A stretch of DNA of 64,000 bases from Ruditapes philippinarum (lineage: Eukaryota), in assembly GCF_026571515.1 (NCBI RefSeq), contig NW_026866323.1:1-64000 (forward strand), in the 5' to 3' direction. The notes under the pieces are model-generated. The model had not been told where the DNA came from. It worked only from the letters and a program-made list of their open reading frames with translations, and did no database searches. Of the stretch, positions 2,566-34,171 are shown piece after piece. Position 1 is the stretch's first letter; each line of letters starts with the position of its first letter. Position numbers and translations under genes: made by a program.

Positions 2566-4661
2566 AAATTGTTAAAGTCAAATAAACATTGGAATGAATA
2601 TCAGTGTTGCAATTAGTCTTATAGCCAATTTACTACAATTAAAACGCTGGAAAACATTGGTGGCACTATACATATAATCTCACAACCTGCACCTTTCTTA
2701 CATTCTGAGACCCAAACAAATTCAGCGCCTTCTGTGCTTTGATTAACATGTGCAGTTGTGCACTATTTCAGAATGCAGATATAAACTTTGTGGTATCAGT
2801 TGTAGATTTTCATTCATAGCTAACAATATTTATATTTCTCCCTCATTTTACAATTATAGAGCCTTTATCAGGCCACTTCCTTAAAAAGATCTTTCAAGAT
2901 TATGACAAAGAGCATAAATAAATGTCATACAGTATACATTTAGAGACTTAAACAAGGTTTACAATATATAATAATGAATACACATTTTATGTATTGTTTA
3001 ATTTTAGAAGCAATGTATGTCTTTACATTGATTAGGTCTTTAGTCATTTTCTCAGTACTAGATAGTTAATAAAAACAATTTACAGACAGTCGTTCCCTCA
3101 GACAATTCACCCCAAGCCATTTTTGTTGAAATAAAATCTCCCACAAGTATTGTCCATTCTGGAAGTTATGATGAATAATTTACTTTTTTACTTGAATGCC
3201 AAAAACCGTAACAACCATCACTTGATGGAACTGTATAAAAAGGTCCTACCAAAAGTTCTGTTACAAATGGGCTTCCTTAGTTTTATCTAAAATAAATGAT
3301 GAAAACCCTAAAAGAAGATGGGGTTGCAAAAGCTATAAAAACACTCACTACATTTTGCTTTAAAATATATTGAATTATATGCAGTTATATACAATAACTA
3401 GGTCACATGGTAAAATGACTAGGACTGCAATTCATAGTTATTATAAGGTGAATTGCTTCTGTCTGCAAAACATAAAATAATTATGTTCGTAGTATTTAGT
3501 ATCAGAAACAAAACATTAAAGAATTATATTTGGCAGTTGTTGGCAAGTGTGAGTTTACATGATCCAACATTACATAACAGGAGATAATAACAATCTAAGA
3601 ACTCTGTCTTATATATTTCATCATGTAATAGTAAATCATTTAGAGATTTATTACTTACTCATTTTTCAAGCAATATTTCATAAAAATATCAAAACAAAAC
3701 ATTTCTATTGTTTTTATTGATATTTGAATTTTTTAAGGAAAATGTGCCACTTGTAGATCAATCCGGTTTAAATACCATACTGGGGTATAGATGTTGATTC
3801 AAAACAGAAAATTGTTGAATTTTCCATGAAATATTGACACTGATTTGACACAAATGCTTTCTTCCACATGTGTTGTATTGTTAGGTCATCTCTATCTTTG
3901 AGAAAGGTAGTTAGCTTTAAATTGTCCGTCTTACAGTGCACAAAAGGCTAAAAAAATGCCCTCTGAGATTATGAATCCAAATTATCTCTTAGCCATTTCA
4001 TTTCTCAGTTCCTCAATCAGATACAAAAATAATATTCATCTCTTTACAAAAGCTACAATGATGAGTTTTGGTATTGGGCGACTTGGGAAAAGTTTATAAT
4101 AGAAATAATTTGGATAAAACATAGTATTTTTTTAAGAAAAAACAGACACTAATGACAAGAGTTTTTGTATGACCCTCGTGCAGTTTTTCATAGCAACATT
4201 GATACATTATAAATAACATGTGATTAAAAAATCAATAACAAACACAAATAAAGTCTGTAGAATCCTTCAAATAAATGAAATATATAGAAACTCACAATGT
4301 GATAATTATGTGACAAAATTGTAAGACCATTGATTTATTTTTAAATATTCATTCATATTTATTAACAGATAGCTAAATATAGCTGAACACTGTAGTTATA
4401 ATATTCAAATACTTTACCACATCTTAAAATTTGTAATACATGTACTTGTTCTTAGACTGAATGTTTACATTACAACCACATATTCAATATGTCATCACTT
4501 TTTGTTTTCTCCAATAGTTTATTACAAATAAGCACTAATTTCAACATCAGCCAGAATTATCAATGGAGCACTATCAGTGTTCATAGACCAGCTTTAATCC
4601 TTTAAGTTATGTAACAATAAGCTAATATATCCTGTCATAGATACAGGTCATTAACAGGTTA

Positions 4662-7600
4662 TTATTCCACCTGCCATTCACTAAAGAAGTCATTTCCTTT
4701 GTTATCAACAACAATAAATGCCGGGAAATTCTGAACCTCCACCCTCCATATTGCTTCCATCCCTGAAATGATAATTATAAACTTCTGAATTGGATCACTT
4801 GTTACATATTTACATACACATCATGTGATAAAAAACTCACATCTGAATACTTTGTGATCAGAAGTGCTCAGATGAACTTAAATTCATTTGAATTAATGTT
4901 GGCAGTAAAAACATTCACTAAGTCTTTAAATTGTTTATCAAATATCTAGCACTTTCGTTACAGGATAGTTCTATATATAAAATGTATATAATACATGGGA
5001 GTTAACTTGTGCAACAAGTCATAATTACAAGAAAATTATGTTTTTCCCCAAATTCTTCTGTGCCAATACTGTGTTTATTTAACATTTAAATTTCTCTTCG
5101 GGCACAAGAATCTTTAAATTGAAAATTTAGAGATGTCATGCATTATATAGAGGATATTGAAGTGTATGTTAAATAGAACAAGTTGAATTTTTGAAATAGC
5201 ATTTGAAACAGCAGTTCCTCAGACAATTAAAACAGAGGTCCTTCTTCTGAGATATGTATTCCCCGGATGTTTAGCAAGCAATCACCAGATTCCCCACACA
5301 ATCCTGAATGTCCTGGTCTATAAGACATCAATATAGCTTTACTCAAGTCTTCATTAAATCTTGCAAATTCTTTACCAAGACAATGTACTGGGAAGGTTAG
5401 GGATTGCTTCAGAGTAAAATTTGTACAACTTTTTCATCACAAGAAATACCATCACTATATATGTCTTTCTTTCATACACATTAAATATACAACATTATAA
5501 TGTATTATATTTAAATTATCATGTACACTCACCTAATTCAGGATATTCTAATTGTTCCACTTTGTGTATACAATTTTTGGCTAGAATAGCAGCTGGGCCA
5601 CCAATAGAACCAAGATAAAACCCTCCATGCTTCTTACATGCTTTTGTAACCTGGAGAAAACAGGCACGTATCTTTTAACTTAATCTTCAAAGTTTTATTC
5701 TATTTATTGAAAATTACATCATTCTATTTATAGTGTATAAAATTATTACACTTATTCACTTATTTCTAAATATTTTCGATTAAATTGAAAATATAATCTT
5801 GATAAAAATATAATCTTGATTTACTATATCTTCTTAAATTGACCAGCATTCTTTATCAATTCATATCAATGAACATATTACATTATTATGATAGAGTAAA
5901 AATGCTAAGAATAAAAACTGCTATAAACATCATGTCATAAATGACTGAGTTATTGGAAATTTTAATTTTTTACTACTTTTAGTTTATACTATACTGTGCT
6001 TTTCTTAGTTGATGGTACTTAACGCTTTGAAACAAGAAGGGAAACAAATAATGAAATTATGGTATAACAAAAATTTATAAGCTGAAACATTAAAGTACTT
6101 TCTGCTGTATGACACAAGGAAATATTAATATATTCAATCAAAATCAGATTTAATGGGCCAGACGTAGACCATAGGTCAACCATTATGAAAACACCATGTC
6201 ATCATTTAAATGATGGTTAAAGGGTGTTACACTCTAGTTTTTTCATGTTTCAGTTAAAATTACTAAATTTGCTAAATTTTAAAAATTATAACTATTTTTA
6301 CTTTTTACCTCAATTTTTTTTTTATAATCAGGAACATTAAGAAAATGGATTATGATAATTGTTTCAGACGTATGCATACATTTTAAGGGACTATTGTGAC
6401 TTTTTACAGAAATTTGTAAATTGTTGTTCTGTTCTATGAAAAAATCTATAGATTTAGTATGTTTTGGACAAAAACTTTATTGTTCAGATGTATGACTAAA
6501 ATATGTCAATTTTGACCAATGTTTACACTATTCACATGGAAATATGGCATTACCATGAAGTAAGTGATGACGCAGATTAGTGATGTTGACTATAATTTTA
6601 GTTTGATTATGTAGGAAGCTATAAGTTTATTGAAAAACTCTCGAATCCATTCTTGTGACCAACCGGTACTAAGCAATAAGTGTAATGTTTTTTATTCACA
6701 GAAACAAGGGCTTTTGATTTTTAAGTTTGATTTTGCCATGAACTTATTATCCAGTAAAAATATTGTAAAATTATTAATGAGTTGCTGTGCATTTACCTGT
6801 TTACTTCTGTTTCCTTTAGCTAACATTATCATACTACCACCGGCAGCTTGAAACTTCTCAACATAACTGTCCATACGTCCTGCTGTCGTAGGTCCAAATG
6901 ATCCACTAGCATATCCCTACAAATCATATATACCTCATATATATTTAATCATTCATTTAAGTATATATATTATATATCATTCATTTAAGTATATCAATAT
7001 TACCTTAAACTCTTAATAAATATCTTAATTTATACAACAAATTATCAGATATTAGACTTAGTCTGTTATAAATCCTATCTATTCAAATGATTACATTTGT
7101 AACAATAAACCAAGTGAAATCATGATGTAAAATATAAATCAGGAAAACAGTACATGCAATAATGTCCCAGAATTCAGGTGACTGTCAAAGAGGTGTAGAC
7201 ATAAGTGCATGTACAAAATACACAAATACAGCAAATGCTGTTTATTAGTATACTGTTAAAAATAAATAAACATAAAAGCTAACAGCGAGTGGTAGCCATC
7301 ATTGTAGCCAGTCCATCCGTGAGATGGGGCACTGATTCCAACAGATTGAATAACATTTTAACTTCTGCATATTGAACTTTTTCATTACCTCTTATAAACA
7401 AACAAAATAACAGTCTTTTCTTTTTTCTTTTGTTATACAAAGAACCTCAACTTTTCATATAGTGATATACGTGTTATCATGATTAAAATCATGGCAAAAC
7501 ATAAGAAACATTGATATAATAATTATATTATGTTACCTCAGGTGTTTTAGCAGGACCAGCATAATATACCGGATGTTGTTTAAAATATTCCGGTAAACCC

Positions 7601-10600
7601 TCACCACTGTCTAATCTCTCTTCTAACTTAGCGTGGGCAATATCTCGTGCAACTATCAGCGTACCAGTTAAATTCAGCCTTGTTCTGATTGGATACTGAT
7701 CTAATAAACTGAGAACCTCTGACATTGGTTTGTTCAAATCAACCTATAAAATATAAAGTTGACAATTTACAAAACTTTATCATACCTAGTGATAAGTTCA
7801 AAGTTCTACCTATAGTTTTTGTTACACAAATAATTTGTCCCTTATATATCTTATAATTGACATTATATGATTTGTAACCCCTTGCAATGTTGTACGAAAA
7901 AACCTGCGGATAATAGACAGTTTTTAAAGTAAGTAAACCACTAGAATAGTATATAATTTATGCTGCTTTGGCGACTCTGTAAAAATGGTATTGCACAGCC
8001 ATGCATTTTTTTTATGTGACCTCATTTGCGTAATACAAACATAGTGTAAAGACGGGCTAAATGTTACCATTATTTACTGAAAGGGTGCGCAATAAAAAAA
8101 GGGACTCTTTTTACTTCAACATTTTTAAATTTTTTGATAGGGTTTAAAAAAAAGGAATATCAAATTTGTGTATCTTTTTTACTGAATTTATTGAACTCTT
8201 TGAATAAAATAATATTTTGCTCGGTATACTTACATTTATAACATCGCTTCCTAAATCTTTGTCTTCAACCTCTGGTAGATATTTATCTGGGTTAGTTTCA
8301 AGCTGTTCCAAGAACACTCCCTCCTCACTGATCTTACCTACTATCTAAATATAGAACATACACAAACATAGAGTAACAGCATATATTGCTTCTTTATGTT
8401 AGATTTTAAGTCATATTGACCTTGTTAATTTCTTGTTAAAGAAGACCTCAGGTGCCTTTTCATGCATTATTTGAAGCACAAGCATATGCACCTCAGTAAA
8501 ACCACCGACCCCCTGTAAGATAGCTAGATAGCTTCCCAACCTGCACCTCCTAACACTGAATGATCCTAAGTCCTTTGTGGGGCTTGAATCCATAGCAGTG
8601 TGGGACTGTCTTTATCATTCAGTCAAACTGTTAAATAAAAGCTCTGTGACATTTATTATCAACTTCCTTATCTTATTACATTAAAAAGAACAACTAATGT
8701 TTTATTGTCAAACAAAAACCAGTATCCCTTCAGATCAATAAAATAAGTTTCAAAAAATCATATTTAAGAAAAATTACTATATTAACAGTTTGAAAATGTA
8801 TAAATACAGTTCAAAAGAGCCTCTGTATAATGCAAAATATGACAAAATTTGCCGTTTTACCATCATGTGTCTGGCAGATAACTAATACAGAAGGGATATA
8901 TCTACACAATTAGACAGGTTATAGGCAATTTCTGTTCATATTAAGTACATTTGGCCATGTTAATTAACTCTCTTGTAAACTTGACAAAAGGTTTTCATTT
9001 TTCAATTTTAAATTTTCACAAAAATTGCCATTGACCTGGATGTAAGCTGCTTTCGATAGAAATAAATCTAGAAGGTAAGTAATGTGTTACATATCTATGT
9101 CATACCTGTCTGTCAGCTGAACATGACACACCAATACCGACGGGGCACGATGCTCCGTGACGTGGCAATCTGACCACCCTGACATCATGACAGAAATATT
9201 TACCACCAAACTGGGCACCTATACCCATACGCTGTGTCAACTGATGAATCTCTTTCTCAAGGTTAAGGTCTCTGAAAGCTCGACCATGTTCATTACCTGT
9301 TAATACAAAATGAACCGCGCCGTGACAAAACCAACATAGTGCGTTTATAGACCAGCATGGATCCAGACCAGCCTCACATCCGCGCAGTCTGATCAAGATC
9401 CATGCTGTTCGCTTACAAACCCTATTACAAGTAGAGAAACTGACGGCAAACAGCATGGATCTTGATCAGACTGCGCGGATGCGCAGGCTAGTCTGGATCC
9501 ATGCTGGTCGCAAACACATTATATTGGTTTTGTCATGGGGCGGCTCAAATAGTTTTGTCTTAATATGTAACATTCTAAAAATAGATGACATCAGGTAAAA
9601 TGGATCTATCACTTCTTTAAGAATAACAGTTAGGCTCAGCTGCACAAAGCTTTTTTTTGATGTTAAAAGTTCCATGGATTAATTTGTTGACAGATCCTCA
9701 ATGCTATGGATCACAAATTAATCTAAAGATATCATAATAATGCAGTTCTTTCACTTATCTATGTAAAAAAAAACCCACCAAACAATTTCAACATTTTAAG
9801 TTTAATAATTATTTGAAGAAGACCAAACTGTTATTTTTTTCCAACAGATATTCCTAGTTATGCTGTAATGTTAGGAACAGGTAACTTACCTGATGTAGGT
9901 AATGTATCAAGATATTTAGTTGATGCAAGTTTTACTGTTTTCAGATTAAACTCAGCTGATGTACCGCCCACTACAAATGCCAAGTGATAAGGTGGGCAAG
10001 CAGCGGTGCCAAGGGTCTAGTAAAGTATAAAATGTAAATAATTATACAACATAACATGTTTTTATAATAATAGGTTTAAACAAACAGGCATTTGTTATCT
10101 ATAGTTTAGTTGATGATTCTTTTTAAAAATATTTTTTTGAAACTGCTCATGCCTTTAATATTGGAAAATTTAGCATGGTAACCAAAAGCAAATTATTAAA
10201 CATAAAACCACTTCTTCAATCATTTAGTCAAATCATACAATGATTACCTCCCCTGGACCATATAACATAGAAATACTGAAATCTGTAATGATCTTACACC
10301 TAAATATATGATCATGACTATTGGATAAAATTGATGAAACTGTCCATTACTAAATTTTGTATGGTATAACAAAATTAAACATTATACATGAATCTCTATA
10401 ATTGATACTTAGAAAACATAATCAATATCCATCCAATTACAGTAGAATCCCTACTAAAGACCACCTCGGATTTAAGACCACCCCGCTTTTAAGACCAGTT
10501 TTTAAAAGAACGGAATTTTCTGTTCTTTATGTCAATGGTTACATGATCCAGAATTAAGACCACCTCACTTATCCACATTTAAGAACCAACAAATTCAGAA

Positions 10601-13600
10601 AATTTGATATCAAATTTCTTCAGAAATACTTGTTTCTTCCCATCATGTGATGTAACATTATTAAAATAATCAAATTTCTTTATATTGTATTTGCAGGTTA
10701 AGATATATATTGTTTGTTCATACAAAATGACTAAAATAGGCCCTGGTCATATCGTGTGTAAGCAATGATAAGAATCTCCGCAATTAAGACCACCCCGCAA
10801 TTAAGACCACTTTAGTCCAGACCCGATGGTGGTCTTAATTGAGGGTTTTTACTGTACAGATAAAGCTTATTTAAACTGGACACTTTACCTGTAAAAGCCC
10901 TACAATAATTAAAATTTAATGATAAATTATTGAAAATGACTGGATATAATATACATTGTATGCCAGCTAAAGAAGATAAAGTAATGAATAAAATTGAGTT
11001 AAAGGTTACCCACCTTAACTTTTTCATCAACAAATTTGAGAAGTTTTTCAGGATTCAAGAGTGCTTTTGTTTGTTGATATAAGAATGTTTTGTTGGCTGA
11101 TCCACCTCCTTTAGCAATAAATAAGAAGTCATACTGGTTGCTGTTTGTAGAATAAATCTCAATCTGAGCTGGTAGATTTGTCTTCGTGTTCACCTCTTTA
11201 TACATGTCTAGTGCAGATACCTGTATTATAATATCTTCTCTCAATAAAATCTCATGGGTGAATGTTGTTATTTTAAAAATCAGAGAATTCATTACATAAA
11301 GCACTTTTTTTTCATAGTTTAAAGAGACATGCCTCTAGATATGTAAACTCAATCTTCAAACCTTTTAACTTACGAAAATAAATTCATAGTGTATAAGACA
11401 AATGGTCATTATTGAGGTAAAACTTTGAAAATATAAAGCAAAAAAATACAGAATTTATAAATACAATCTCTAAAATCCTCCCGAGTAAGGGAATTGTTTG
11501 CATAAATTGACAAATTATAAGCGTTTCTGTAGATTGCAAGTGTCTCGGATAAGGCTTAATCACTTTATTAATACATTTGATAACATTTTTTACATTTTAG
11601 CTATGATAAAAATTAACACAAAACTGGAAGTGAACTGCATTAAGAGCTTTTAGGAGTACAAGAATTCTAAAAATAGAAACAATGTTGAAAACTTCCACAA
11701 AAGAAGTCTGTCCTATTCATAAATTTAAATGAGGTGTTATTTTTTATTTGAGGTAGTATTACTTAGATTATGTTAGAAAATAAACAAGTATCCATCAATG
11801 TTACTAGGTATTATTGTGTTTTACTATGGTGAATTAACTTTACTGTTTTAATTCTTATCTAATTTTGACACGTATCAGAAACATAATCTTTCTAACTAGT
11901 AAACATTGTTCTAACAATTTTCATCTGTCTGATTAAGAACTTACAGAAAGAGTATGTATATTTATATGAGCCGCGTCACGACAAAACCAACATAATGAGT
12001 TTGCGACCAGCATGGATCCAGACCAGCCTGCGCATCCGCCCAGTCTGATCAGGATCCATGCTGTCCGCTTACAAACCCTATTACATGTAGAGAAACTGAT
12101 AGCGAACAGCATGCATGGATCCTGATCAGACTGTGCGGATGCGCAGGCTGGTCTGGATCCATGCTGGTCGCAAACCCATTATGTTGGTTTTGTCATGGCA
12201 CGGCTCATATTGTTTAATTATACCTGTGAATATCTGAGATTTCTCTGAGTGTAAGTGTTGTAGATACCTCTAGATATAGCCTCGGCATCATTGCCCTCTG
12301 TCCATACATACTGTCCTTTCTTTCCTACAAACATAAACTAATGTTCAATCATCTACACCTACATAAACTTAAACCTGAAACATTCTGCCTTCAATTTTAT
12401 CATCACTCTTTGGTGCAAAACTATTTTATATCTGTTGTAAGTGATATCTCAACAACTTCATTATAATAACTGACAATGTACAGTTACAGCTAATTCTAAC
12501 TATTGTCAATAATCTCTTCAACTGCTAGGCCAGTTATTTTTGCCTTGAAAAAAGTCTGTATGAAACTTGAGACAGATGTATATAAAAATATATAAAAAAA
12601 ACCTTAATTGAGAGGTATTTCATTATTTCTCAAAAAACAACAACAACAACAACTTCAATACATCATATAATGAAATTTTTTAATTTTACCCGTTTTGTTA
12701 GCAAATATCACCTGGGGAATGGGTAAACCCAAACTGATGGCAGTGAAAGTGATTATCAGATATTAGTTGTTCAGAAAGTAATAAATTCCATATTGATATT
12801 CCTGGAAACGGGTCAGGCACAAATATATGTCACAACTTGGCAACACTTTGTTACAACTTCTGTCAAGATCATATGTGAACTTTCGAGCTTTACTGGTAGA
12901 GAATACCTCCTGTGTCTCAAGAGCATGTATTATCTTAGGCACAAGTTCGGCAGCAGGCTAGCAGCTGGCCTAGTAAACATTATGTGTATTTTTTGTTTTT
13001 AAATGAACATATTTCATATATTGTCATAATATTTACTAAAAATTTCAGCCAAGTCATATAAAGTGCTTCTGAAACAGAATGTTATATCTATCTTACCCAT
13101 ACAAATGGCTGTTCCAGTATCTTGACAGCCAGGAAGTACCATGTTAGCAGCAATACTTGCATTCTTCAGCAACTCTAAAGCCACAAACTTGTCATTACTA
13201 GATGACTCGGGATCTTTCAAAATATTTGACAGTTGCTGTAACAATATAGATTTAAATCTTAACAATGTGTATAATTGCAGTAACAGGGCTAACAAATGTT
13301 TTGATTTACAAATAAAAGTGGCTTGATGAGCTATGCTTCAAAAAGTTTATTACAATTTAGTGTATATATTCATAAACTTTCTGTAAATAAATTTTTTTTT
13401 GTATCCATGCTATTAAAATTATAAAGAGACAAGCACCAACACTTGACATATCAGAACAAACTTTTTTATCACCAATACTAGAGATGTTGTTTACAGAGAT
13501 CTATGGGGGATAATGAGTCAATGACTGATGGCAGATATCATGCTATCTCTGAGCATTTTGAAAAAAATTATCAAGAGTACTGGGTCCAAGGTTATAAAGA

Positions 13601-16600
13601 AACTTTCTTAGTTCAAACTTAGATCTAAAGTATTTGGTTTACAATGTACACTGACAAGTGATAATTCTGAGACTCTAGAGTTCAGAAATTTTATTTTACT
13701 ACCTTAAGGTTAGGTATACATATACATATATATATACATGAGCTGCGTCACGACAAAACCAACATAATGGGTTTGCGACCATCATGGATCCAGACCAGCC
13801 TGCCCATCTGCACAGTCTGATCAGGATCCATGCTGTTCGCTTACCAACCCTACTACAAGTAGAAAAACTGATAGCGAACAGCATGGATCCAGATCAGACT
13901 GTGCAGATGCGCAGGCTGGTCTGGATCTATGCTGGTCGCAAACCCACTATGTTGGTTCTGTCATGACGCGGCTCAATTATATATATCAAGTTATGGTTCA
14001 TTAGTTTATAAACAATACCTGTAGATGAGCTGGTCTAAGAAGATGTGCGATATCTACCATGGCTTGCTCTGCTATCATAGTGAGAGCTTCTGGCTCTACT
14101 TGTAAACATTTCTTTCCCTTCACCTCGAAAGTTGACACATAGTCACCTACACATTATACAAAATATATTTTCTTTTAATACACATGTTACTATAGATAGT
14201 AACAAATTGACAATAATTTCAACTGAATATGAGTGTCAAATGAAGGATTATGTAACTACCACCATGACCCAAGAATATACAACTTAAGGTCACCAGACGT
14301 CATCCAGAAAATGAAAGTGTATTTATCATGGATTGCTTGATTTTTTTATTACGACTTGTAAAATCAAACATAAAAGAAGAAACAACAGTTTTACACAACC
14401 TTGTGACTACTTTAAACCTAAATGGATTATAGTGCTAGCAGCTATTTTTGAGTCTAAAATAATCATAGTGTAGGACCTGCTCAATAATGTATAACCTCTT
14501 TATTTCACACAACCAAATTTTTAATATTTTGACAAAACTTTGTTTCCATTAAAAAAACAAACATTTGGTGCAGACACCATCAATAAGGTGCTTGATGGAC
14601 CGTCTTAAATATGTAAGAGAGTTTACTCTTATAAAATTGTAACAGGCAAAAGTAATACTCAAGTACAATATGAATTGGATATAAATAATGAATCTTTTAG
14701 ATTCAGAAAATGAAAACGAGAAAAGATGAAGTACAATATAATTTGATGTGATATTTTGACTTATAAAATGAAAACTTGGGTATATTGATAGCATTGAATC
14801 AAGATCTGATTTACATTAGAAATCACAATGTGCAAATGATGGTAGTTCATTGCTAATATTCTATATGGTGTGAAATATTTAAGTACACAAACATTTTCAA
14901 ACTTGAGTTTAAAAAACAAATTTGATTACAGCTGTGTTTCAGTCAATACAGTTGATGGTAAGTATTGATATTGCACATTGTTGTGCTTATTTTCTTGAAA
15001 CAGTGATGACAAAATGTTTTTACATAATCAACTGAAAGTAGAAACCTGACTTTATTCTTTCTTACATATTTCCCATGGTGTTTGTATAATTAAAAATTTT
15101 TAAAATGTTAAAATAATTGCATTTTTGGTAAAATCTGTATTGCATATTAAAGTCTAATTAGCCTTCTGTCTGTTTTCATAGGAGATGTGCTGCATTAAGG
15201 GAGAGTGTTTGTACAACTGTAGATGTCATGCCAATCTCATGTGGAGTTCCCTTACTGTGCCTCCAACATTGGACCAGGTATTTGTGCCCATTGTGTTGAG
15301 CTAGAACCACAGAGAAATCCGGAACTGTTAACAAAGTATAGGATTGTACTTCCAGTTTGTGAGAAATGCATCACTGTCCACAAGAAAAACATTCCCCATA
15401 GATGTCCTATAAAAAATGAATAATGTGAACCTAAATTTTGTGGGTATTTCCACAATTAGGACTGTGGCTTAACTGTTTACTTGTCTGAAGTTGCATAGTG
15501 TTTGAAGTTTTTTTCCTGGTTTTGTTACTTTAAATAATACTATTCATTAAGTGAAGATAAAATGTAAGCAGACTTTAAATTGTTGATGTATAATGATGTC
15601 TTTTGTTGTTCAGTAGTTATTTTGCATAATATATTTGAGTGTTCCAGTCATCCACGTATATTTGAGTGTTTTAGTCATCCTCTCACATGTTGGGTAAATG
15701 TTCGAAATTTGCTTTTGTTACATGTATTTTTATTAAAAAGAACTATACTTTTTGTATTGACTAATTGGAAGATCTACAAACTTAAACAAGATTGCATTTG
15801 AGAAAAATGCTATGCCACCGCATTAATACAACACCAAATAGTAGTGTAGGGAACAGATTTTTTTTGTTTCTATACAATTTTGAAGATTGTCATAATACAA
15901 AGATCATTAACCTATCTAATTCTTATTATCAGATTAGTGGTTAAATCTGTTGTTAACTCAATAAAAGATCAGAGTAGGAATATATCAATTCACTCGAGTC
16001 TAGTGAATTTGGTGGTGAAGGTCATATTTCACACAGCCTAAATTTCATGACTACAACACAGTAAGACAAGGACAACACAGTAAGACACTTTGTCGAAATC
16101 TAGGTCAGCTGAAATCAAAGTTCACTATACATCTTAATCTGTGCACATGGTTCAAATTTCATAGCTGTACATCAAAGGACAAGAAAGTAGGTCACTGTCC
16201 CCTTGGGCAAGGCGAAATTTTGGACCCAAGGGTTTAATTCAAAACAATCTTGATACTGGTCCACCAAACAACATTTCAAGTCAAATATCTAAGCTGTAGC
16301 TTTCTCCCAAATAATATTCTCACAAATATTAAAGCTCTAAGCAGACAATAACATTTTTTGATTTTTTACAATATTTATATATTGAAAATCAATGACCCCC
16401 GGGGCGGGGGCAATTTTGATCCCAGGACTATAATTTGAACAATCTTGCTAGAAGTTCACTTCACAATGTTTCAGGCAAAATATCTAACCTGTAGCATTTG
16501 TCAATTGCTAGAAGAAATTTTTTTAAAGTTTTTACTATAAGTTTTTACTATATACATATAAGGAAAACCAATGACCCCCGGGGCTGGGCCCATTTTGACC

Positions 16601-18206
16601 CAAGGGCTATAATTTGAACAATCTTGTTAGAGGTCTACCAGACAATGCCTTATGCAAAATATCTAAGCTCTAGGCCTTTTGGGTCTTTACAAGAAGGTAT
16701 TTTAAGTTTTTACTATATGTACATATAGTGAAAATCAATGACCCCCGGGGCGGGACCGATTTTGACCCCAGGGCTCTATTTTGAACAATCTTGGTAAGGG
16801 TCTACCAGACAATTCCTTATACAAAATATCTAAGCTCTAGGCCTTTTGGGTCTTTACAAGAAGGTATTTTAAGTTTTTACTATATGTACATATAGTGAAA
16901 ATCAATGACCCCCGGGGCGGAGCCGATTTTGACCCCAGGGCAATAATTTGAACAATCTTGGTAGAGGTCTACCAGACAATGCCTTATGCAAAATATCTAA
17001 GCTCTAGGCCTTTTGGGTCTTTACAAGAAGATTTTTTAAATTTATTCTTATAATTCCTTTTGGTTGCCATAGCAACCAGATTTCTGCATGGAATGAAATT
17101 TTTTGAACAACTTTGGAAGCCCTTCACCCAAGGATCAATACTGCCAAGTTTGGTTGAAATTGGACTAGTGGTTTTTCACAAGAAGATTTTTTAAGTTCAC
17201 TATATAATCTATATAACACACAAACAAACAAACACACACACACACAGGTGAATCGCTATATGCCACCGCATCGCAGATGCTGCGGTGGCATAATAAAAAG
17301 TAAGATATATCAATTTTAAAATGTTTATTCACATGCAAAATATATTAAATAGTTTTTTCCAACAGACAGAATCAAACCAAAAAAACATTTATGTATTTCC
17401 AAAAAAAAAAAAAAAAAAAATCCCTACCTACCCAACTCTAAAAAGTAGGGTCGGGAGACAGCAAACAAAGACTTTTTTACATGTGGCCTAGTTACTTAAT
17501 GGTGATCATAAAAGTTTCTTTCATTTTTTCCTAAAATTATGGACAGAATGAAGCTCATACACCTCTGGATGTTTGCTTGGATAGACCGACTGACAATTAA
17601 AAATGCTATACAAGTATGTCCAAAAGTTTCTTCAGGTGTATAAAAAAAACCTTACAATACAAAATTGTTTAATGGAAATTCGCATTCACAATTGTCAAAT
17701 TGTAGTCATTGACAAAATTATAAATGACTAAAAAACATGAGAAACAGAGATATAAAAATTTAACCATGATTATTTATTATGAATCAAGACTTTCAAACAT
17801 AATTTAATCTTTTTAAGTCCATTAAATAGCTAAATTTCAGCAGTATTTCATAGGACTATATTCTGACAAACAATGGCAATATGGCGCTTAATTTCACAGT
17901 CAAAGTGTCCCAAACATTTTCACAAATGACTGAAAGAATATACTGACATGTATGGTAGTACCATGTATTTATGTCTCAGTTTGTGTGACATACTTTACAG
18001 AACAAAACATTATACAAGTTGCTGTGATTTATTAAAGTACCTGTTAACTTTTTCCAAGGTATGTCAGGCTTTTTCTCTGTTTCTAGAATGTCCTGATAGT
18101 AAAATGGATTCACATCGCTAGCTACTGTTGCCTTCAGCTGTTTGTGAATAATAGCCCCAAATCTCTGACCAACACTGTACAACAACCTTGACTTGTGTGA
18201 CAACAT
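4662..18206 (-). CDS. fumA: Class I (Fe-S, FumA/FumB-type) fumarate hydratase, probable mitochondrial precursor, 571 aa, 12 coding exons
   Basis: Exons in transcript order: 18041-18206, 14019-14146, 13097-13235, 12224-12324, 11014-11220, 9890-10016, 9106-9296, 8234-8344, 7537-7743, 6797-6916, 5533-5650, 4662-4762. All introns are GT-AG and the total is 1716 nt in frame. Motifs: [139 protein letters not shown]. The N-terminus [26 protein letters not shown] is basic with no acidic residues. The symbol denotes homology to bacterial fumA. Confidence 0.97.
8440..8612 (-). mobile_element. tRNA-derived SINE (bivalve-type conserved body), degenerate
   Basis: The minus strand shows B-box-like GGATTCAAGCCCC, then GGAAGCTATCTAGCT...GTCGGTGGTTTTACTGAGGTGC...GGCACCTGAGGTCTTC. 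A related GAGGAAGCTATC fragment lies at about 39976-39988. Confidence 0.6.
9312..9546. mobile_element. 235-bp palindromic MITE (Sola-like termini), copy 1
   Basis: About 105-bp arms GAACCGCG...CGGCTC, with a 4-bp AAAT duplication on both sides. Confidence 0.9.
10440..10854. mobile_element. Tc1/mariner (pogo/Tigger-like) MITE
   Basis: TA|CAGTAGAATCCCTACTAAAGACCACC ... GGTGGTCTTAATTGAGGGTTTTTACTG|TA, with repeated subterminal TTAAGACCAC motifs. Confidence 0.75.
11968..12206. mobile_element. 235-bp palindromic MITE, copy 2 (4-bp internal duplication)
   Basis: GAGCCGCGTCACGACAAAACC...GGTTTTGTCATGGCACGGCTC, ATAT target duplication. Confidence 0.9.
13740..13974. mobile_element. 235-bp palindromic MITE, copy 3
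   Basis: Same family and length; flanks ACAT/AATT do not match. Confidence 0.9.
15182..15423 (+). pseudogene. Decayed exon encoding a Cys-rich (CxxC...CxxC) module, probably a transposase C-terminus
   Basis: Acceptor TTTTCATAG, then [24 protein letters not shown]...ICAHC...VLPVCEKC...RCPIKNE*. It has two in-frame stops and is antisense inside a fumarase intron. Confidence 0.5.
15785..17295. mobile_element. Helentron-associated / pearl-like non-autonomous element with internal ~167-bp tandem array
   Basis: Begins AACAAGA with TATGCCACCGCA at 15811-15822. Tandem units start AATGACCCC at 16391, 16570, 16737 and 16904. A CA microsatellite lies at about 17215-17246. The terminal hairpin is TATGCCACCGCA-tcgcagatgc-TGCGGTGGCATA at 17259-17292. 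Confidence 0.75.
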
Positions 18207-18351
18207 TCCAACTGCCTGAAGATAAAATTTATTGATGATATTGTTTAACAATCAAATTTGTGATGAGTTCATTATGCGATGCTTAAGAAATGCTTTTTTA
18301 TTAAAACTTAACATCACTTACACATGGGTATTTGTATAAATAAAGAGTTAA

Positions 18352-20377: not shown

Positions 20378-23300
20378 ATGGAGGAAAGCGACGGACCTAT
20401 AAGCTTTGCTGATCTTGGAATCAATGTTACAGATTCCACCAAAGATACGTGTTTTGGGAAGGTATAATTAGTTGATGTTTTATCGACATACTTATGATGT
20501 AGCAGAGCTACATGTACTTTGCACTTTATGTAATACGAAAATTGGATCGCTTTAAATATTCTTCAAATATCAGGACAATCATTTACATATATTTTATGAG
20601 TTTTACACAAGATCATAAGTCATTTTAAATTATTTTGTTTCTCGGTTAAGTTTATACTTTTGTATGATTCAACTTATTTTGAAAACATGTAAATACATGT
20701 AAATGTATACATACACTGTACAGTATGCTTTAATATTTTAATTAACGTTGTTGATTTATACATGGGTAATTTTAAATACATTGTGAAATGAGTATTTAAA
20801 TGTTTAAAAAAAATATTATATATTATTTCTTGTTGTTCAATAGATAAACATGCATGTTGAATAAATTGAACGCAGCTTTAAAGTTTATCTAAATCAAGTG
20901 CACACATGCTTTAAGAAATTGACATGCGTTTTATAAGAGAAAGAATGTTGCAGTTTATCTTGACGATTGCAGAATGTAATTTAATCAAATAACCAGTAAA
21001 TCAATAACAATTATTAAAGTACGAAAAATGTACAAATGTAAAATGACAAAATATTTTAGAATGTTTTAGCTACATTGTACACACGAACCCCTGTTAAATC
21101 CTTGTTCCGCATTGAGTTGGGAGCAGTTTACTGTTTACCGTTATTATAAAAAACATTTCATTGGATTTATAATTTGGCCTGGTCGGGATTCGAACCCGGG
21201 ACTCCTTGAACATCTAAGCCTAAATGTCAACAGGTTGGTTTTTTGTACTTTCGGTTTCTACAACCATAATAATAAATATATAAATAATGTATTGTTTGCT
21301 TTTGTTCCTATGAATTCACTCATTTTAGGTGGACTTTTACTACATATATTGGAAATAAACTTGTCAACAACTCCCAGCATTAAATTACTATTTGTTTACA
21401 TGTTTAGTTTCTAAGCGTAGGTTAGACCCGTTCTGTGTATTCATAAGACTGACGGAAAGGGCCGAGTAGTTGCGATTGGTCATTATTGTTGAAAATGTCA
21501 CCCAACTCTGATTTTTCCTATGCCACATATTTATCATCACTTTAATCATTAAAGAAGAGCGGCTCTAAATATCGATTAAAATTTATTAACTATTATAAAT
21601 CAAAATATATCAAAATACTGTAGCTATTTATATTATAACTTCTGTGCGTGACTTATATATTTATCATAATTCACGGCTGCTGCATATTTCTGTGAAGTAC
21701 AATGTTTCCCTATGTTACTCGAAGGAAGCAACTTTTGAATATGATATATTCGTTATCAAGATTTATAGCAGGTTATGTGTGTTTAATCGAATAAGTGCTA
21801 TATTCAATTAAATTCAATTCAATTCAATTCAAACGTTTATTGCAATTAAGTAAATACATTCTTATAGCAAATTACAAATGATATAAACACTTAAGAATGG
21901 GTCATTTGTATTCTGTCCAAAATATGATAATAGGTCAAGCTGGAGCAGTATATTTTATAATTTAAACAAAGACTATTTAATTACCTCTATATCAGATTCA
22001 GAGTTGTGAGAGACTGACGAAGCTTGAGAAAGTTTTTCTGGTTGTGACTTTGTTGTGTTTGGTTGCCTCCCTTGGTATCACAATAGAACGGTTGGTTGTG
22101 TCACCAAAAGATAGCGCAGATTTTACGTTTGCTTTAGTGCTTTTCATTAATATTTGTAAGTATTGGCAATGTTTTTTGAATGGATTTGTTTAAATATATA
22201 GCGGAAGTTGTAATGTGTCTTCTGGTAGAATCAAAAGTTATAAAAATGCATGTTCCCATAAAATAATGTTATAACGTGTTTAATGCGGACACCATCTTCA
22301 TCTGATATAAAGTTTTCTAAAACGGTGTAATTAATCATAACATTCAACGGTGCTAAATAATTGTGGTGTTGATAAAAATGATGATGATAATGATGATGAT
22401 AATGATGATGATAATGATTGGACGTGCTTTTACAGAAGATGATGATGTTAATATGTTGTTGTTTTGGTTGTTTATGATATTGGTAGTGATAGACATTGAT
22501 GCTGGTTGTATAGGTAGGTGATGATGATGATGATTATTATTATTATGATGATGATGATTATCATCATAATTATGCTAATTGTGATTTAGATTGCGAGAAT
22601 GATGATGATGATGATGATAATTTTATTCTACTGCTGCAGCTGATGGTGATGATGATAATTTTTATTATAATATGTTGTTTTTGTAGTTAAACATTCAGTA
22701 ATGTGATGTATAACATATTTATTTTACAGTATTCTGCATTTACTACGTTTTAAACGGCGTCTTCTTTGAGCGGCCTTATGAGATAGGTATACTTGTCCTA
22801 GCTACGGCCGTGGTTTGGTTGTACCTAGTGCTTAATTACGCTATCAGTGCAAAAGGTCCATATAAACTGGTAAGTCAAGATAAAATATGAATCATTATCA
22901 GATACCATATCATTAGTGATGATCAGTATTACAATACAATTGTATTTGTTTTATACACATTTATTAAAATTAATCACATAGTTAAGTATAAATAACATTT
23001 AGAGCGGTACCTATTGTTAACAGAACAGCTTTGCTTACTGTTGTAAAACCATTGTCAGTCAGCGAAAACCAATATGGCCGATTTGTTCCTGGACCATTAT
23101 TTTTGTAGATATTCTCTGACCAAGGTGTCAATTTACTCACTAATGTGTTTTGTGTGATTTAAACTTATTGAAATAGACAAAAAGGGATGTGACTATGCTA
23201 TAGTAGCAAATGATAGATAAATACTCTGACTTTTTATTTGAATATCAATCAATTTAACCACAAACCTTTGTGTTCCAAATATGTTGTGGGAAAATGCTTT

Positions 23301-26300
23301 TTCTAATCCACTAGTCTAATAATTAGAATAAGACATGTTAGGAATCTATGAATAGGTCACAGGTGAAAATAAAACCTTTCAAAGGAACACATGTAAGATG
23401 GACCACTGCATTTAAAATGGATAAAGATGCTGCTATTTTCACTGACTCCTTTCCTTATATATGCCACCGGAAATCAATATTGCCTATGTATGGAACTATT
23501 TTATATCTTTCATTTGTAAGTTGGAGCTGTTATTGATGAAACATTTAATTGATATATTTTTCAGGCTCGACTCATCGTGTCTTCCTCCCTAAGTCCATGT
23601 GTAATCGTCATGGGCGTGTTAATAGCACGGAACTACCATGAGTCGAAAAACCTGATATTTCGAACTGTCGGGGCGCATGGTACTTTGCAAGAATTGTGCA
23701 GAACAATGTTTGTGTTTTTTGATCTTTTAAAAGCTGATTTGCAAGTTTCGGTAAGAACACTTTATTGAGATATAGTTTGCAAAATTCCCCCACGTCAATT
23801 TAATAGTATTCTTTGCTTTATTTATATGTATTCTCAGTCTACGAATGGGTAATATATGAATTGTTATGTAGTTTAGCATTAAATGTTGTTTTAATTGTTA
23901 ACCTTTTTACATGTGAGACATGGTCATGTGATCGGAATGAACAGAGAAGTTGTGTTCATCCTTGAGAGAAGTTGTGTTCATCCTTATAAAAGAACCTCAC
24001 TGCAATTTCATATGTAGCTTAATTACAGGGATAAGACCTTTTGTTCTGATATTATCCTTATCCCCCCTGCCTTCAAGTCCTTGCTGCAGCCCCCCTTAAC
24101 AACAACAAAAAAATAAATATAGATAAAAGTCATTTTCCACATTTAGTCTTCATAGTAACAATAATATAACACTCTTACGCAATTTTCATAATACAGTGTA
24201 CTTCATAATATCTCTAGGTATTATGAAAAATTGCCTTATAGTGTCATATTATTGTTGTTATGAATACTTAATGTGGGAAATTTCTTTTATTTATATTTTT
24301 GAGGGATTGTAGGCAGGGACTGGAAGGCGAGGTGGGGGGGGGGGGGGGGTTAGCGGTAGATCAAAGCGTCTCATCCCTGTGAGCTGAATCACAAATTGAA
24401 TTTCTTTCTTCATTTTTGGCTCACTGAATGCAACGAAAGTTCAAATGTATGGTCCAAAATACATTTCGGAGGAAACGAATCCGTTTAAACTTATTTTGGA
24501 ATAATTAAGATAAAATGGTATTCAAAGAATTATTTGACTGCAATGACCAGGAAAAATACGTAGTAACCTATCCTTGAAGCTGGTTACTTCCTGTTATCAT
24601 TTTACGTCATATGTAATCAGGGATAAAGTTGTTTCCGTTTGAAATAGTAAATAGTAAAAATATACTTTTACTGTACTTATAGTACTTATTAACGGATATA
24701 TAATTTTTAACATTAAATATGTCCTTGATTTCTTATTACAATGTATAATGATACAAAGGCCAACTTTAAACCTTTCCACTTTAAAGAATGCCTGATATAC
24801 AATTAATGTACCACTTTATATTGTCATTTTAAAGAATTTTATTGCAAGTTGACCTTTGTGACGCCGTTCTGTATGATAACATGTGTAAATTTATAATATA
24901 TACGCATGCGAGAATTAGGAGAATAACTGCCTTCACTTTGATTTTATAATTATTCAAGTGTCCTTTAAACTACTCTATAAAAGTGACAAGATTTTTGCTG
25001 GCCGGAATAGGATTCTCTTCGGGCTTAAAGAAATAGACTAGTTATCTCATTGAAAAACATGTTATCAAAATATTACACGTGCTGTTGTTGTTATGTGCGT
25101 TTAAATTTTTGGTGTATACTTAATTTCACTTTATTTCAGTTATCTCTAGCGTTGTTTATTTTGACGTCTGGACAGAAACTGGATCTAGAAGACACTATCT
25201 TACTACCATTATCCCTGGTGTTTGGCCTAGCTTCTTTTGTCACAGGATATCTCTCCGTATGTATATTTTGAATTACCGGCATCGAACGTTATCGAACGAA
25301 TAGTTTTAAAAAACGTCAGAGAAATGACGTCACTGTAACGTTCACAACATCTTGTTGTTTGTAATAATAATTAGAACTAAAGTTAACCAGTGACCTATTT
25401 TATAACTTTTGAGACACGGTAATTATCCAATCGTTAAGCTAATAACCTCAAGGCATGATTAAAAAAAAGAAAAAATACTATACTTTCAGCACGGTCGTGA
25501 TGGGGTCCACATATCATTGAAATAATTTGACGAAATTTCTGATATAGGTGTACTATATTTCCTTATTCGTTAACAGGGACTTCTCGCTTACTATATAAAT
25601 TTCCTCTTTTTTTTAAAAAAAAAAATAACCATTTTTACAAAAGATGTTTTTTTCCGACTGATTTTTATCAACTCTACTGTGTAATTAATGTGGTAAACAT
25701 TACATAATTATAATGAGGTAGTAAGTTTTCATTTTCAATTTTTCATGACATTATATTTTACAATATATATTTTCTTAGATTCTAAATTACAAATCCATTC
25801 ATAATATAAATAGGATACAACCAGTGTGTCAGTGTACGTATCAATGACGTAAACAGTCTAAGCTAGTGAATTATTTTGTTCCGCAACACTTTAGATATAT
25901 GAATGAAAACCGTAATCTCGATTGTCCGTTTCTGACATTCCCTTATTTTTGAGATATAATCTACATGTGTTCAAAGAAACACTCTCCCTTATTTTTGAGA
26001 TATGATCTACTTCCGTTCAATAAATACCGTCTTTTATTTTTGACATATGATCTACATTGTAGCCCTTTTCAATGATTGCTATCTTGACTTTCAGGTGCGG
26101 ATAGAAAATAAACCAGTAGCTATAGCATACGCTGTAATTTGGATCACAATGCCGGCGTATGCTACCTATCTGATAGTGAGGGTAAGAAATCAATGTATTT
26201 ATATTATAGGTGATTTTATATATTGAACATGGTGCTTCACCACGCCAATATTTAACGCCAGTTTTAACAAACCAATGCTGGTTTGATGAGAATTTTTAGC

Positions 26301-27652
26301 ATAACATGATTAGCCAAAGGTGTCTTTCTGTGAATTTTGTTAATGATATTTAATCAAAGGGCAATTTTATGTCCGTTAAGGTGAATTGGTCCACAATGGA
26401 AGGTCTGTCCTACCAGAAATATTTATGTTGTTAGTATTCAAACTACAAAATAATTATATTTAGATGCTGTGTGTTAGTGTTGGATGTAACATATTTATTT
26501 TTATCCGATTAAAATTGTTGTAGAATAAATTGTTATAGAAGAATATCCAAATGATATTTTCTAATGTTTTTGTCAATATTTGAAAAAAAAACTTATGGAA
26601 ATTGCGCCCATTGTAGATCAGTTCAGTTTAATATCTGCTAGCAACTTTATTTTCTTGTTTTGAATAATACTTTACTGGATCTCCTTTAAAAATTTGGACT
26701 CAAATGTTTGGAAAAGATACCCACAACTGTCTTTCAATTTTACGATAAACGCCGGATTCAAGGGGAATCAGTCAGGTTTAAAAATCGATAAACGGTAACA
26801 CGTAAGTTATCCATCTTTCCCTGCAATGACCAGCGAGTCTGTCGAATTACATTGTTTTAGAAAAAAAAACATTTTTTCATTTATCACATATTTAAGGATA
26901 CTGTATTTTTACAGGCAGCTAAAGACTTACAATCTGTAGGCGACAACACGCAGACGAGAACTTCACTGAACGCTGTGATTTTTGTGGCCGCTGTGGCGTG
27001 TTTACTGGTCAGAGCTGCTACTCTTTATTTTGGATTCAAAGCATATTTCAACTTTGGTAAAGGCTTGACACAGAAAGGTTGGGACTGGTTGTTGTTTTAT
27101 TGTTTTTGTTTATTAAATCATATAAAACCATTCTAATAAATTTGCTTCTCCCGATGACATCAGTTTGACATTTTCACAATCTTTTCACAAAATGAATAAA
27201 TACTCCTAGGCTGCCAACCAGAATAACTTTAAACTTGCCAAATGTATATTGGCTCTGTCATGCTTTTTATTTGAACCAATCCATTCAAACGTTTAAGAGA
27301 TATTTATATAAAATCTCAGAAGTTGAGCTACCTACAGTAGAGAGATTAGTCCGACTGTGCAGGCTGGCCTGGCTAGAACTTCCGGTTCAAGCAAGATTAG
27401 ATAAACTTTACATAGTAAAAAACGACTGTCTTGATAAAAATAAAACACAGGCATATATATTCAAGTTGTCCACTTTACTGGGAACGGAATACACTATTAT
27501 ATGCAAAATGTGTTTCAAGTTTTTAAAGAAACTTGTAAAAGTTTAATGTGTAAAGTTATCATGATATTGTCACTGTATTTTCAGTGTATGGAAGATTGAC
27601 AGAGGAAGTGTCGGTTAATTCAACACAACAACCACAACAAGAACAAGCTTGA
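20378..27652 (+). CDS. Uncharacterised multi-pass (about 8 TM) membrane protein, paralog A, 334 aa, 8 exons
   Basis: Exons 20378-20461, 21996-22155, 22730-22869, 23565-23750, 25140-25256, 26095-26181, 26915-27077, 27585-27652. All are GT-AG and in frame (1005 nt). MEESDGPISFADLG...KVFLVVTLLCLVASLGITI...GVFFERPYEIGILV...LIFRTVGA...LLKADLQ...VRIENKPV...AYFNFGKGLTQKVYG...QEQA*. Supported by the colinear paralog downstream. Confidence 0.9.
21172..21226 (-). repeat. tRNA-like B-box fragment
   Basis: The minus strand reads CCCGGGTTCGAATCCCGACCAGGCCAAA; no 5' half of a tRNA is present. Confidence 0.4.
22378..22660. repeat. Imperfect (GAT)n microsatellite region
   Basis: Several ATG/GAT runs in intron 2 of membrane protein A. 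Confidence 0.85.
24025..24380. mobile_element. Fold-back MITE (imperfect long inverted repeat)
   Basis: ACAGGGAT...ATCCCTGT ends. The arms pair inwards to GCAATTTTCATAATAC / GTATTATGAAAAATTGC around a ~23-bp spacer. Confidence 0.75.
26376..26631. mobile_element. TTAA-flanked MITE (Kolobok-like)
   Basis: TTAAGGTGAATTGGTCCACAATGG ... CCATTGTAGATCAGTTCAGTTTAA. A similar right end lies at about 3744-3771. Confidence 0.55.
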
Positions 27653-28051
27653 TTCAAAGGAATTTATTATTTGATCATATGATCCTCGTTCACGAAAACC
27701 TTTTATTTGACTCAAAACGGATTTTGTGTACCAGTTGATCATTGCTAAATGCTCCTCATAATGACACAACTTGGAACTGCGAAATTGTTAATATTCATAT
27801 TTTCATTCAGCTTGTTGTTTATAAACGTTCGGAACACCTCGGGCAACTTGTTACGAACTTGTCGAGAAAGGCGAGTTCGAATTATAGCTGCAGAAATGAA
27901 CGTATGACACTAGTTAGTGTATTTGTCCTAGCTTGAAATACTCTACTCGGCAATCAAACAGAAACCTTTTATATTTGTTAAAAGCCTTATACCTAAGTAA
28001 GATGAAGTAAGATTCTTTATTAGGCATTATTTACATTATGCGATTTGAAAT

Positions 28052-28286
28052 GAGCCGCGTCACGACAAAACCAACATAATGGGTTTGCGACCAGCATGTA
28101 TCTAGACCAGCCTGCGCATCCGGGCAGTCTGATCAGGATCCATGCTGTTCGCTATCAGTTTCTCTACTTGTTATAGGGTTTGTAAGCGAACAGCATGGAT
28201 CCTGATCAGACTGCGCGGATGCGCAGGCTGGTCTGGATCCATGCTGGTCGCAAACCCATTATGTTGGTTTTGTCGTGACGCGGCTC
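28052..28286. mobile_element. 235-bp palindromic MITE, copy 4 (central spacer inverted)
   Basis: Same family, AAAT target duplication. Confidence 0.9.
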
Positions 28287-28719
28287 AAATACTAATCTAC
28301 AAAGATTATCACAGAAATACCCGTCTGTGTAAAGTTATTAAGAGCATTATAGTTTACCGGTATATTAAGTTTATTTTATGTGCATAAAAATAACCTGCCA
28401 TTTATTTGTCTTACACAAAGTTAAGATTGTAGATGTATAATTGAGTATTCCTGCGAAAAATTAGAAAGTTGAACGAGGACACAAGATGAATATTTTCAGC
28501 TACGTCAAATACCCCCTTTAAGCTTGCCCTGCAGTACATTACTTATGCTTTTTATCACATGCTTATTGTGTTGGTGAATTTTTTTATTATGTAGTATAGT
28601 ATGTCATTTCGTAACCTTTTTTTATGTAAATACTTATATGATTTTCTACATCATACTGCTTCAAAATCGTTATGATTACACTAAGCAGGTATGCATTGTA
28701 TACATCGAGTTGAGAAACA

Positions 28720-28945
28720 GCGATGAGATTAAAGGGAATCCGGGAACCAGTCCCTATAGCTCTTATTGAATAAATCCCTTAGTTCTTTTATATGCCCGGT
28801 GTATAGCACTGATACATGCAACGATTACCTGGATTTCTTACCAGGACACCTTTATGTAGGTAGGAAACACTTAAAGTGTCTCTGAAATATTACAAGGGTG
28901 TTGCCCAGGATCGAACCGGGACATCTGGAGTGATAATCAGGGGTA
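28720..28945 (-). mobile_element. tRNA-derived SINE, degenerate
   Basis: The minus strand has B-box CCGGTTCGATCCTGGG (about 28905-28920), followed by a body containing GGGCATATAAAAGAACTAAGGG. Confidence 0.5.

Positions 28946-34117: not shown

Positions 34118-34171
<54 letters not shown>

Follow-up and report, generated by a model that had tools for sequence, protein, structure and literature searches.

Among the nearest described relatives of the enzyme reported here are the fumarate hydratase (FH) of Leishmania major (LmFH; PDB 5L2R, with 6MSO as a second isoform) and FumA and FumB of E. coli, single chains that join the Pfam domains PF05681 and PF05683 and are modelled by PRK15390 and PRK15391. 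In Acanthamoeba the class I enzyme was placed in mitochondria by microscopy, and a class II gene coexists with it that was scored non-mitochondrial, whereas bivalve class II is named 'mitochondrial'; the same study suggested that class I fumarase goes back to LECA (PMC13632651). The class I enzyme of Fasciola hepatica was called Platyhelminthes-specific (PMC5257007), and two further sources report class I fumarases in 81 of 1,277 animal proteomes (PMC13655608) and multicellular eukaryotes with both fumarase classes (10.1101/158956). We analysed a window of 64,000 nucleotides from the clam Ruditapes philippinarum (contig NW_026866323.1), which holds a class I fumarase gene that runs along the minus strand (18206→4662) in 12 exons and has a coding sequence of 1716 nt for 571 residues. 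All 11 introns are GT-AG and 490-3894 nt long. We hold with reasonable confidence that this gene is spliced and expressed and encodes a single-chain class I fumarase, predicted to be mitochondrial, that is likely a 4Fe-4S, general-purpose enzyme vertically inherited from pre-animal times. Its parts are as follows.

Exon 1, 18041..18206, minus strand: residues 1-56; ATG and a basic, acid-free 30-residue leader, a predicted mitochondrial presequence
Exon 2, 14019..14146, minus strand: residues 56-98
Exon 3, 13097..13235, minus strand: residues 99-145; cluster ligand C135, Q136, D137 (catalytic acid equivalent)
Exon 4, 12224..12324, minus strand: residues 145-178; R175
Exon 5, 11014..11220, minus strand: residues 179-247; KGGGS motif with K215, G218, S219
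Exon 6, 9890..10016, minus strand: residues 248-290; cluster ligand C254
Exon 7, 9106..9296, minus strand: residues 290-353; H336, cluster ligand C348
Exon 8, 8234..8344, minus strand: residues 354-390; interdomain linker
Exon 9, 7537..7743, minus strand: residues 391-459; R423 in the C-terminal domain
Exon 10, 6797..6916, minus strand: residues 460-499; T469 (catalytic base equivalent), T470, R473, K493
Exon 11, 5533..5650, minus strand: residues 500-539
Exon 12, 4662..4762, minus strand: residues 539-571, then stop
3′ UTR, 4177..4661, minus strand: end approximate; the depth of RNA run X23 reaches about 4180

Four splice combinations of the gene were open, and the one listed was accepted because it alone is identical to the RefSeq protein XP_060574472.1 (P0203; 571 of 571 residues); the other three (569, 571 and 573 residues) were dropped, as none equals that protein. 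The clam gene is already known in this sense, by automatic RefSeq annotation, for which no experimental data were found. The protein from a Logan contig (P0002) agrees with the chosen model at 570 of 571 residues, and the Mercenaria protein is 94% identical to it over the aligned columns. Exon reconstruction and RefSeq identity bear out the 12-exon, 571-residue reading frame of the original prediction, and the cysteines named there, C135 (CQDTG), C254 (ACPPY) and C348 (VSCSAD), spaced C-X118-C-X93-C, recur in the reconstructed protein. An Rfam scan of the whole window gave no matches.

Membership in the family was likewise as predicted, a Pfam profile search finding both Fumerase (PF05681) and Fumerase_C (PF05683) in one chain, with nine of the 12 exons matching one of these profiles singly at E<=0.01. 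Scores for TIGR00722 and TIGR00723 were above cut-off. Against the three full-length NCBIfam models for class I, the protein reached 880 bits for FumA (NF011919, PRK15390), below the curated cut-off of 1105, so that it is not an enterobacterial FumA equivalog; 867 bits for PRK15391, below the cut-off of 1094; and 778 bits, the lowest and again below cut-off, for PRK15392, which we take to be the FumD model. The clam protein thus has the single-chain, two-domain architecture of E. coli FumA and FumB and matches nearly the whole of their models, but it falls below the enterobacterial equivalog cut-offs and carries an N-terminal leader. Judging from its sequence, it would work like FumA, yet it is not filed as FumA.

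L. major FH (5l2r) aligned ungapped over clam residues 56-567 (E 2.3e-227), which sets its cluster cysteines C133, C252 and C346 against clam C135, C254 and C348 and agrees with the Leishmania-like spacing of the original prediction. The clam protein keeps every one of the 13 residues that 10.1101/2022.09.03.506457 gives for the cluster and active site of the Leishmania enzyme (LmFH D135, H334, T467, T468, R471, Q134, R173, G216, R421, K491 and the KGXGS motif, besides the cysteines), and in our alignment the full set of 13 recurs in 68 of the 69 eukaryote rows. The clam gene differs in being an intron-rich animal gene; Leishmania itself stands outside our tree set.

Residues 1-30 hold five K/R and no D/E. 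Within the mature protein the 95th percentile of the hydrophobic moment is 0.41, and in the leader the moment rises to as much as 0.53. By our own script, used in place of TargetP or MitoFates, the N-terminus is basic, acid-poor and amphipathic as in a presequence, and the basic, acid-free leader noted originally proved to be of mitochondrial type by charge and hydrophobic moment. Of 55 animal rows surveyed three lack a leader of at least 15 residues; in the remainder the leader is basic and acid-poor in 51 of 52 proteins, and mitochondrial-type leaders are also found in the choanoflagellate and Capsaspora proteins. The clam class I fumarase is predicted to enter mitochondria; the Acanthamoeba enzyme was localized there under the microscope.

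In RNA run X23 all five introns within 4000-9300 were spliced, with 7-26 reads each, and the same five were spliced in contig run X1; loose read ends at 9299 continue into exon 6 (9890..10016). The DNA-like run X15 had none of these five introns spliced, and for RNA run X21, in which exon depth was low, no splice joint was listed for 4000-9300. Nine of the 11 exonic differences listed among sequencing runs are synonymous. The gene model, these spliced transcripts and the kept active-site residues support the claim that the host itself encodes this class I fumarase, in an intact and spliced gene.

By analogy with the class I fumarases of Leishmania and E. coli, the 30-residue leader would direct import into the matrix, and the protein would dimerise (as in PMC4682846 and LmFH). 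C135, C254 and C348 would hold three irons, with the fourth acting as a Lewis acid that binds the substrate; T469 with R423 and R473 would serve as the base, and D137 with H336 as the acid. Because the interconversion of fumarate and malate is reversible, the same enzyme would serve the TCA cycle in the forward direction under aerobic conditions and run in reverse during anoxia. A class II fumarase probably works alongside it. Other bivalves (Dreissena, Crassostrea) appear to hold both classes; a 45-kDa Dreissena spot named 'fumarate hydratase, mitochondrial' matches a 50,021-Da Crassostrea protein, which is of class II size. Literature searches for assay or hypoxia data on a mollusc class I enzyme found none, the one mollusc match being a row of a Biomphalaria proteomics table.

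The original prediction had taken class I fumarase to be patchy in animals, and this did not hold. Named orthologues among the matches listed come from 10 animal phyla (molluscs, annelids, nemerteans, rotifers, flatworms, one priapulid, echinoderms, hemichordates, amphioxus and Trichoplax), and the identical clam protein was already named in RefSeq. Outside animals, the matches listed include named orthologues in five choanoflagellates and Capsaspora. Because the relatives span ten animal phyla and single-celled kin, we regard the enzyme as probably ancient and inherited rather than as a rarity or a speciality for low oxygen. Class I fumarase was likely lost in vertebrates, and probably in insects as well. 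Biomphalaria and Bulinus snails carry class I fumarase, so claims of a 'worm-specific' drug target fail with respect to invertebrates, while they hold with respect to mammalian hosts.

This distribution bears on an alternative that we consider unlikely, namely a division of labour in which malate dismutation in anoxia draws on class I to turn malate into fumarate and the TCA cycle under aerobic conditions relies on class II. A 2017 paper on trematodes put this role forward, so that the hypothesis for flukes is already in print (PMC5257007); three groups that carry the class I gene, the molluscs, annelids and flatworms, are rhodoquinone producers (PMC7434440); the cluster of the E. coli class I enzymes is oxygen-sensitive (PMC4682846); and class I has been described as 'associated with anaerobic organisms' (PMC13632651). 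However, an intact copy is also carried by echinoderms, hemichordates, amphioxus, Trichoplax, choanoflagellates and Capsaspora, beyond the animal phyla known to make rhodoquinone (PMC7434440), and for this reason an anaerobic speciality fits poorly. As a weak point on the same side, the matches listed contain no named nematode protein, although nematodes make rhodoquinone. The kinetics of the E. coli enzymes of the two classes are moreover very similar in both directions, the sea star 'fumA' (of unstated class) goes down under burial (PMC12154441), and of the three full-length class I models of NCBIfam, all under cut-off, it is FumA that scores best.

One may go further and suppose, tentatively and with more doubt than belief, that most invertebrate phyla have kept a two-fumarase switch since the first mitochondria, like FumA and FumC of E. 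coli. Class I would then be the main matrix fumarase, damaged by oxidants on reoxygenation or by iron shortage, class II would cover for it, and vertebrates would have lost class I. If this were true, intertidal bivalves would have an oxidant-sensitive TCA step, and for animals both readings now in print, 'Platyhelminthes-specific' and 'multiple HGT', would be overturned. Bivalves offer plentiful tissue for asking why two unrelated fumarases persist.

We find it improbable that class I was retained for a second substrate, through hydration of mesaconate to (S)-citramalate in the handling of C5-dicarboxylates. Such a role would explain the keeping of both classes, because only class I hydrates mesaconate: class II cannot, the efficiencies in E. 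coli being 4% for FumA, 19% for FumB and none for FumC, and class I fumarases have given rise to mesaconases on several occasions (PMC4682846). Against it, PRK15392 gave the weakest of the three full-length scores, the active-site set is that of the Leishmania fumarase, and no evidence of the pathway was found in clams.

The phylogeny was inferred under LG+G4, with no mixture model. For bacteria it drew on three of the 64 parts of GTDB, from whose 599 relatives the best 80 were taken, and its eukaryotes were picked for their resemblance to animal and choanoflagellate query sequences, a choice that left out Leishmania and Plasmodium. The animals (55 rows, 10 phyla) all came together in one clade (100/98), which holds the clam as well as the trematodes Paragonimus, Opisthorchis, Trichobilharzia and Calicophoron; the Fasciola sequence lies outside the set, and the other phyla contradict its being Platyhelminthes-specific. 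Animals, choanoflagellates, Capsaspora, chlorophytes and stramenopiles made up a clade (99/98) with none of 27 bacteria within it, and in FastTree runs none of 80 bacteria nested in the eukaryote clade. Mayorella was placed outside the supported eukaryote clade. As the animals form one clade within the eukaryote clade and no bacterium is nested there, the tree points to vertical inheritance, likely from before animals arose. It disagrees with the published 'Platyhelminthes-specific' and 'multiple HGT' readings.

Transfer from a bacterium to the animal stem or to molluscs, followed by intron gain, seems to us very unlikely, and at the level of molluscs it is ruled out by the single clade of the 55 animal rows. 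PMC13655608 argues that eukaryotic class I is not monophyletic and that multiple transfers took place, and the highest identity reached by any of the sampled bacteria (71.5%) is not far from the animal minimum (72.5%) and overlaps the identities of protists. Monophyly of the holozoans (animals, choanoflagellates and Capsaspora) was neither rejected (p-AU 0.334) nor demonstrated by the tree, which gives transfer some room. The supported neighbours of the animal clade are nevertheless unicellular eukaryotes and not bacteria, and the choanoflagellates and Capsaspora share the mitochondrial-type leaders. The breadth and single origin of class I fumarase in animals are a useful by-product of this analysis, and imply that the textbook statement that animals use class II reflects the sampling of vertebrates and model organisms. 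The Mya and Tegillarca gene models have an exon-sized gap that corresponds to clam exon 10, and the Elysia model one that corresponds to exon 9, all matching clam introns; a 46-residue insertion in Branchiostoma belcheri X1 matches no exon of the clam gene.

Bacterial contamination or a pseudogene, in favour of which we found nothing and whose probability we regard as negligible, were both rejected on the RNA splicing and the RefSeq identity, the frame being intact, the protein close to that of Mercenaria, the GT-AG introns spliced in RNA and the intronic repeats common to neighbouring animal genes, so that the original exclusion of contamination stands. Its description of the introns as full of host repeats is correct in the main, with evidence of repeats from elements, arrays or DNA depth in introns 1, 2, 4, 6, 7, 8 and 10 and none in introns 3, 5, 9 and 11. 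The located repeats are these.

13728..13986, no strand assigned: palindromic MITE-like host repeat of ~250 bp, intron 2
11957-12207 (intron 4) and 9310-9551 (intron 6), no strand assigned: further copies of the palindromic repeat
16370..17049, no strand assigned: 167-bp tandem array, intron 1

Five more copies of the palindromic repeat occur elsewhere in the window, outside the sites in introns 2, 4 and 6, and in introns 7, 8 and 10 repeats are marked by very high DNA depth.

The window encodes on its minus strand a class I (4Fe-4S) fumarase, which we rebuilt in full (RefSeq XP_060574472.1, 571/571 residues). The coding sequence of 1716 nt begins with the ATG at 18206 and ends with the stop codon at 4662; its 12 exons, separated by GT-AG introns, translate to a 571-aa protein that has cysteines C135, C254 and C348 and whose first 30 residues include no acidic one. 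The gene structure, length and cysteines of the original prediction were thereby confirmed. In an exon-by-exon search nine of the 12 exons separately matched Pfam Fumerase/Fumerase_C, and exons 1, 2 and 8 gave no such match on their own. The protein from a 2016-nt Logan contig was the same save one change, E360D. As a pyrimidine tract with an AG lies 9 nt upstream of the ATG (18207-18217), the gene probably has a non-coding first exon. A candidate splice donor for this exon was seen by eye near 20050, head-to-head with the neighbouring gene. The other features of the window are:

9310, 11957, 13728, 28050, 31485, 47299, 51499, 54363: eight copies of a palindromic, MITE-like element of ~250 bp, with 80-92% identity to the copy in intron 2
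16370-17049: 167-bp tandem array
21981-39052, plus strand: membrane-protein gene of several exons, or a tandem pair of such genes; DUF7789 (PF25044) matches at 21981-22190 and 35297-35521
about 29600-29800: assembly gap (140 N in the window)
32750-33320: 22-bp tandem array
42030-44750, minus strand: small heat-shock (HSP20) gene of two exons (Pfam search)
45270-45797: 64-bp tandem array
46655-52763, plus strand: caspase gene, caspase-8-like, with a weak death-effector-domain match (Pfam search)
59872-60564 and 61076-61762, minus strand: a pair of open frames, each about 230 aa long, without a Pfam match at E<=0.01, probably a single gene

Expression was examined by mapping reads of four runs to positions 4000-9300. 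In the RNA run X23 all five introns of this stretch were spliced (770, 1146, 620, 490 and 761 nt, with 26, 17, 17, 8 and 8 reads, respectively), loose read ends extended into exon 6, and read depth covered the 3′ UTR down to about 4180. The contig run X1 had the identical five joints; within the same stretch the DNA-like run X15 had none, and the RNA run X21 had none listed, with low exon depth. The remaining six introns lie outside this stretch and are supported by protein identity. Nine of the 11 exonic differences listed among the runs were synonymous; the non-synonymous ones, E360D (window 8324) and R312H (9230), are both distant from catalytic residues. Splicing in RNA reads and the palindromic element, which introns 2, 4 and 6 share with five further sites in the window, excluded a pseudogene and bacterial contamination.

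The protein aligned without gaps to Leishmania major fumarate hydratase (5l2r; aa 56-567, E 2.3e-227), and the 13 residues of that enzyme with roles in the cluster, catalysis or binding, as listed in the available text of 10.1101/2022.09.03.506457, all recur in the clam protein (native number +2). All 13 were retained in 68 of 69 eukaryote rows. By homology the enzyme would be a dimer in which three cysteines hold a [4Fe-4S] cluster, its open iron binding substrate, with T469 acting as base and D137 as acid. Since its score falls under the enterobacterial FumA equivalog cut-off, the protein is, judged by sequence, a class I fumarase and not "FumA" in the strict sense. Its leader is basic, acid-free and amphipathic by our own script, a pattern found in 51 of the 52 leaders of at least 15 aa among 55 animal rows, and on these grounds we predict import into the mitochondrial matrix.

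The original prediction took the enzyme to be rare in animals, which proved wrong. Named orthologues occur in at least 10 animal phyla among the matches listed (three lists, each with 120 of 8000 scored candidates, many unnamed, plus cluster look-ups), in bivalves, gastropods, cephalopods and a chiton as well as in annelids, nemerteans, rotifers, flatworms, Priapulus, echinoderms, hemichordates, amphioxus and Trichoplax; named vertebrates, tunicates, arthropods, nematodes, cnidarians and sponges were missing from these matches. Non-animal matches listed included at least five choanoflagellates and Capsaspora, together with chlorophytes, stramenopiles and Mayorella. Animal sequences were 72.5-100% identical to the clam model, those of unicellular eukaryotes 67-75% and those of GTDB bacteria (best 80 of 599) 64-71.5%.

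To place the animal copies we built a FastTree of 149 rows (55 animals, 14 other eukaryotes and these 80 bacteria, drawn from 3/64 parts of the collection); eukaryotes were picked for their similarity to queries from animals and choanoflagellates and include no kinetoplastids or apicomplexans. Animals formed a single clade (99) nested in a bacteria-free eukaryote clade (98), and 147 extra rows left this nesting unchanged. IQ-TREE (LG+G4) on 64 rows (26 of the 55 animals, 11 of the 14 other eukaryotes, 27 of the 80 bacteria) gave 100/98 for the animal clade and 99/98 for a 36-row eukaryote clade; Mayorella fell among mostly alphaproteobacterial neighbours, e.g., Sneathiella and Kordiimonas, its placement not fixed, and holozoans were not recovered as a clade, nor was such a clade rejected (p-AU 0.334). 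These data support one origin for all animal class I copies and favour descent from single-celled ancestors, short of proving an origin in LECA. In gene-model alignments Mya and Tegillarca lack the interval of clam exon 10 and Elysia that of exon 9 (three clear cases in 19 models examined); the loss of whole clam exon intervals implies that intron positions are common to molluscs. In the available text of PMC13655608 class I was found in 81 of 1,277 animal proteomes, eukaryotic embeddings group mostly with Alphaproteobacteria, and multiple transfers are argued for. PMC13632651 localised the class I enzyme to mitochondria of Acanthamoeba and cites a companion study suggesting that LECA ancestry is possible; PMC13673260 gives apicomplexan context only.

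We consider it likely that the clam enzyme was inherited vertically and belongs to a general mitochondrial fumarase type of invertebrates. As the reaction is reversible, it would simply run in reverse in anoxia. A dedicated anaerobic role seems unlikely. The malate-dismutation role raised in the original prediction was already proposed for flukes in PMC5257007, where the fluke enzyme, termed Platyhelminthes-specific, is assigned the reverse step; known animal rhodoquinone is confined to nematodes, flatworms, molluscs and annelids (PMC7434440), and the available text of PMC12154441 reports a "fumA" of unstated class down-regulated in buried sea stars. Our literature searches, with subscription papers mostly outside their scope, found neither a published assay nor a hypoxia study of any class I enzyme from a mollusc. 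A mesaconase role is more doubtful still.

The clam protein is already annotated in RefSeq; what remains of value is the single animal origin and a possible division of labour between both fumarase classes. According to 10.1101/158956, most multicellular eukaryotes having class I have class II too. For bivalves, PMC11036304 reports a 45-kDa Dreissena spot with six peptides matching a Crassostrea gigas protein of 50,021 Da named "fumarate hydratase, mitochondrial". We take this protein as class II by its name and by the class sizes of 50 vs. 60 kDa (PMC4682846), and on that reading both classes likely coexist in bivalves.
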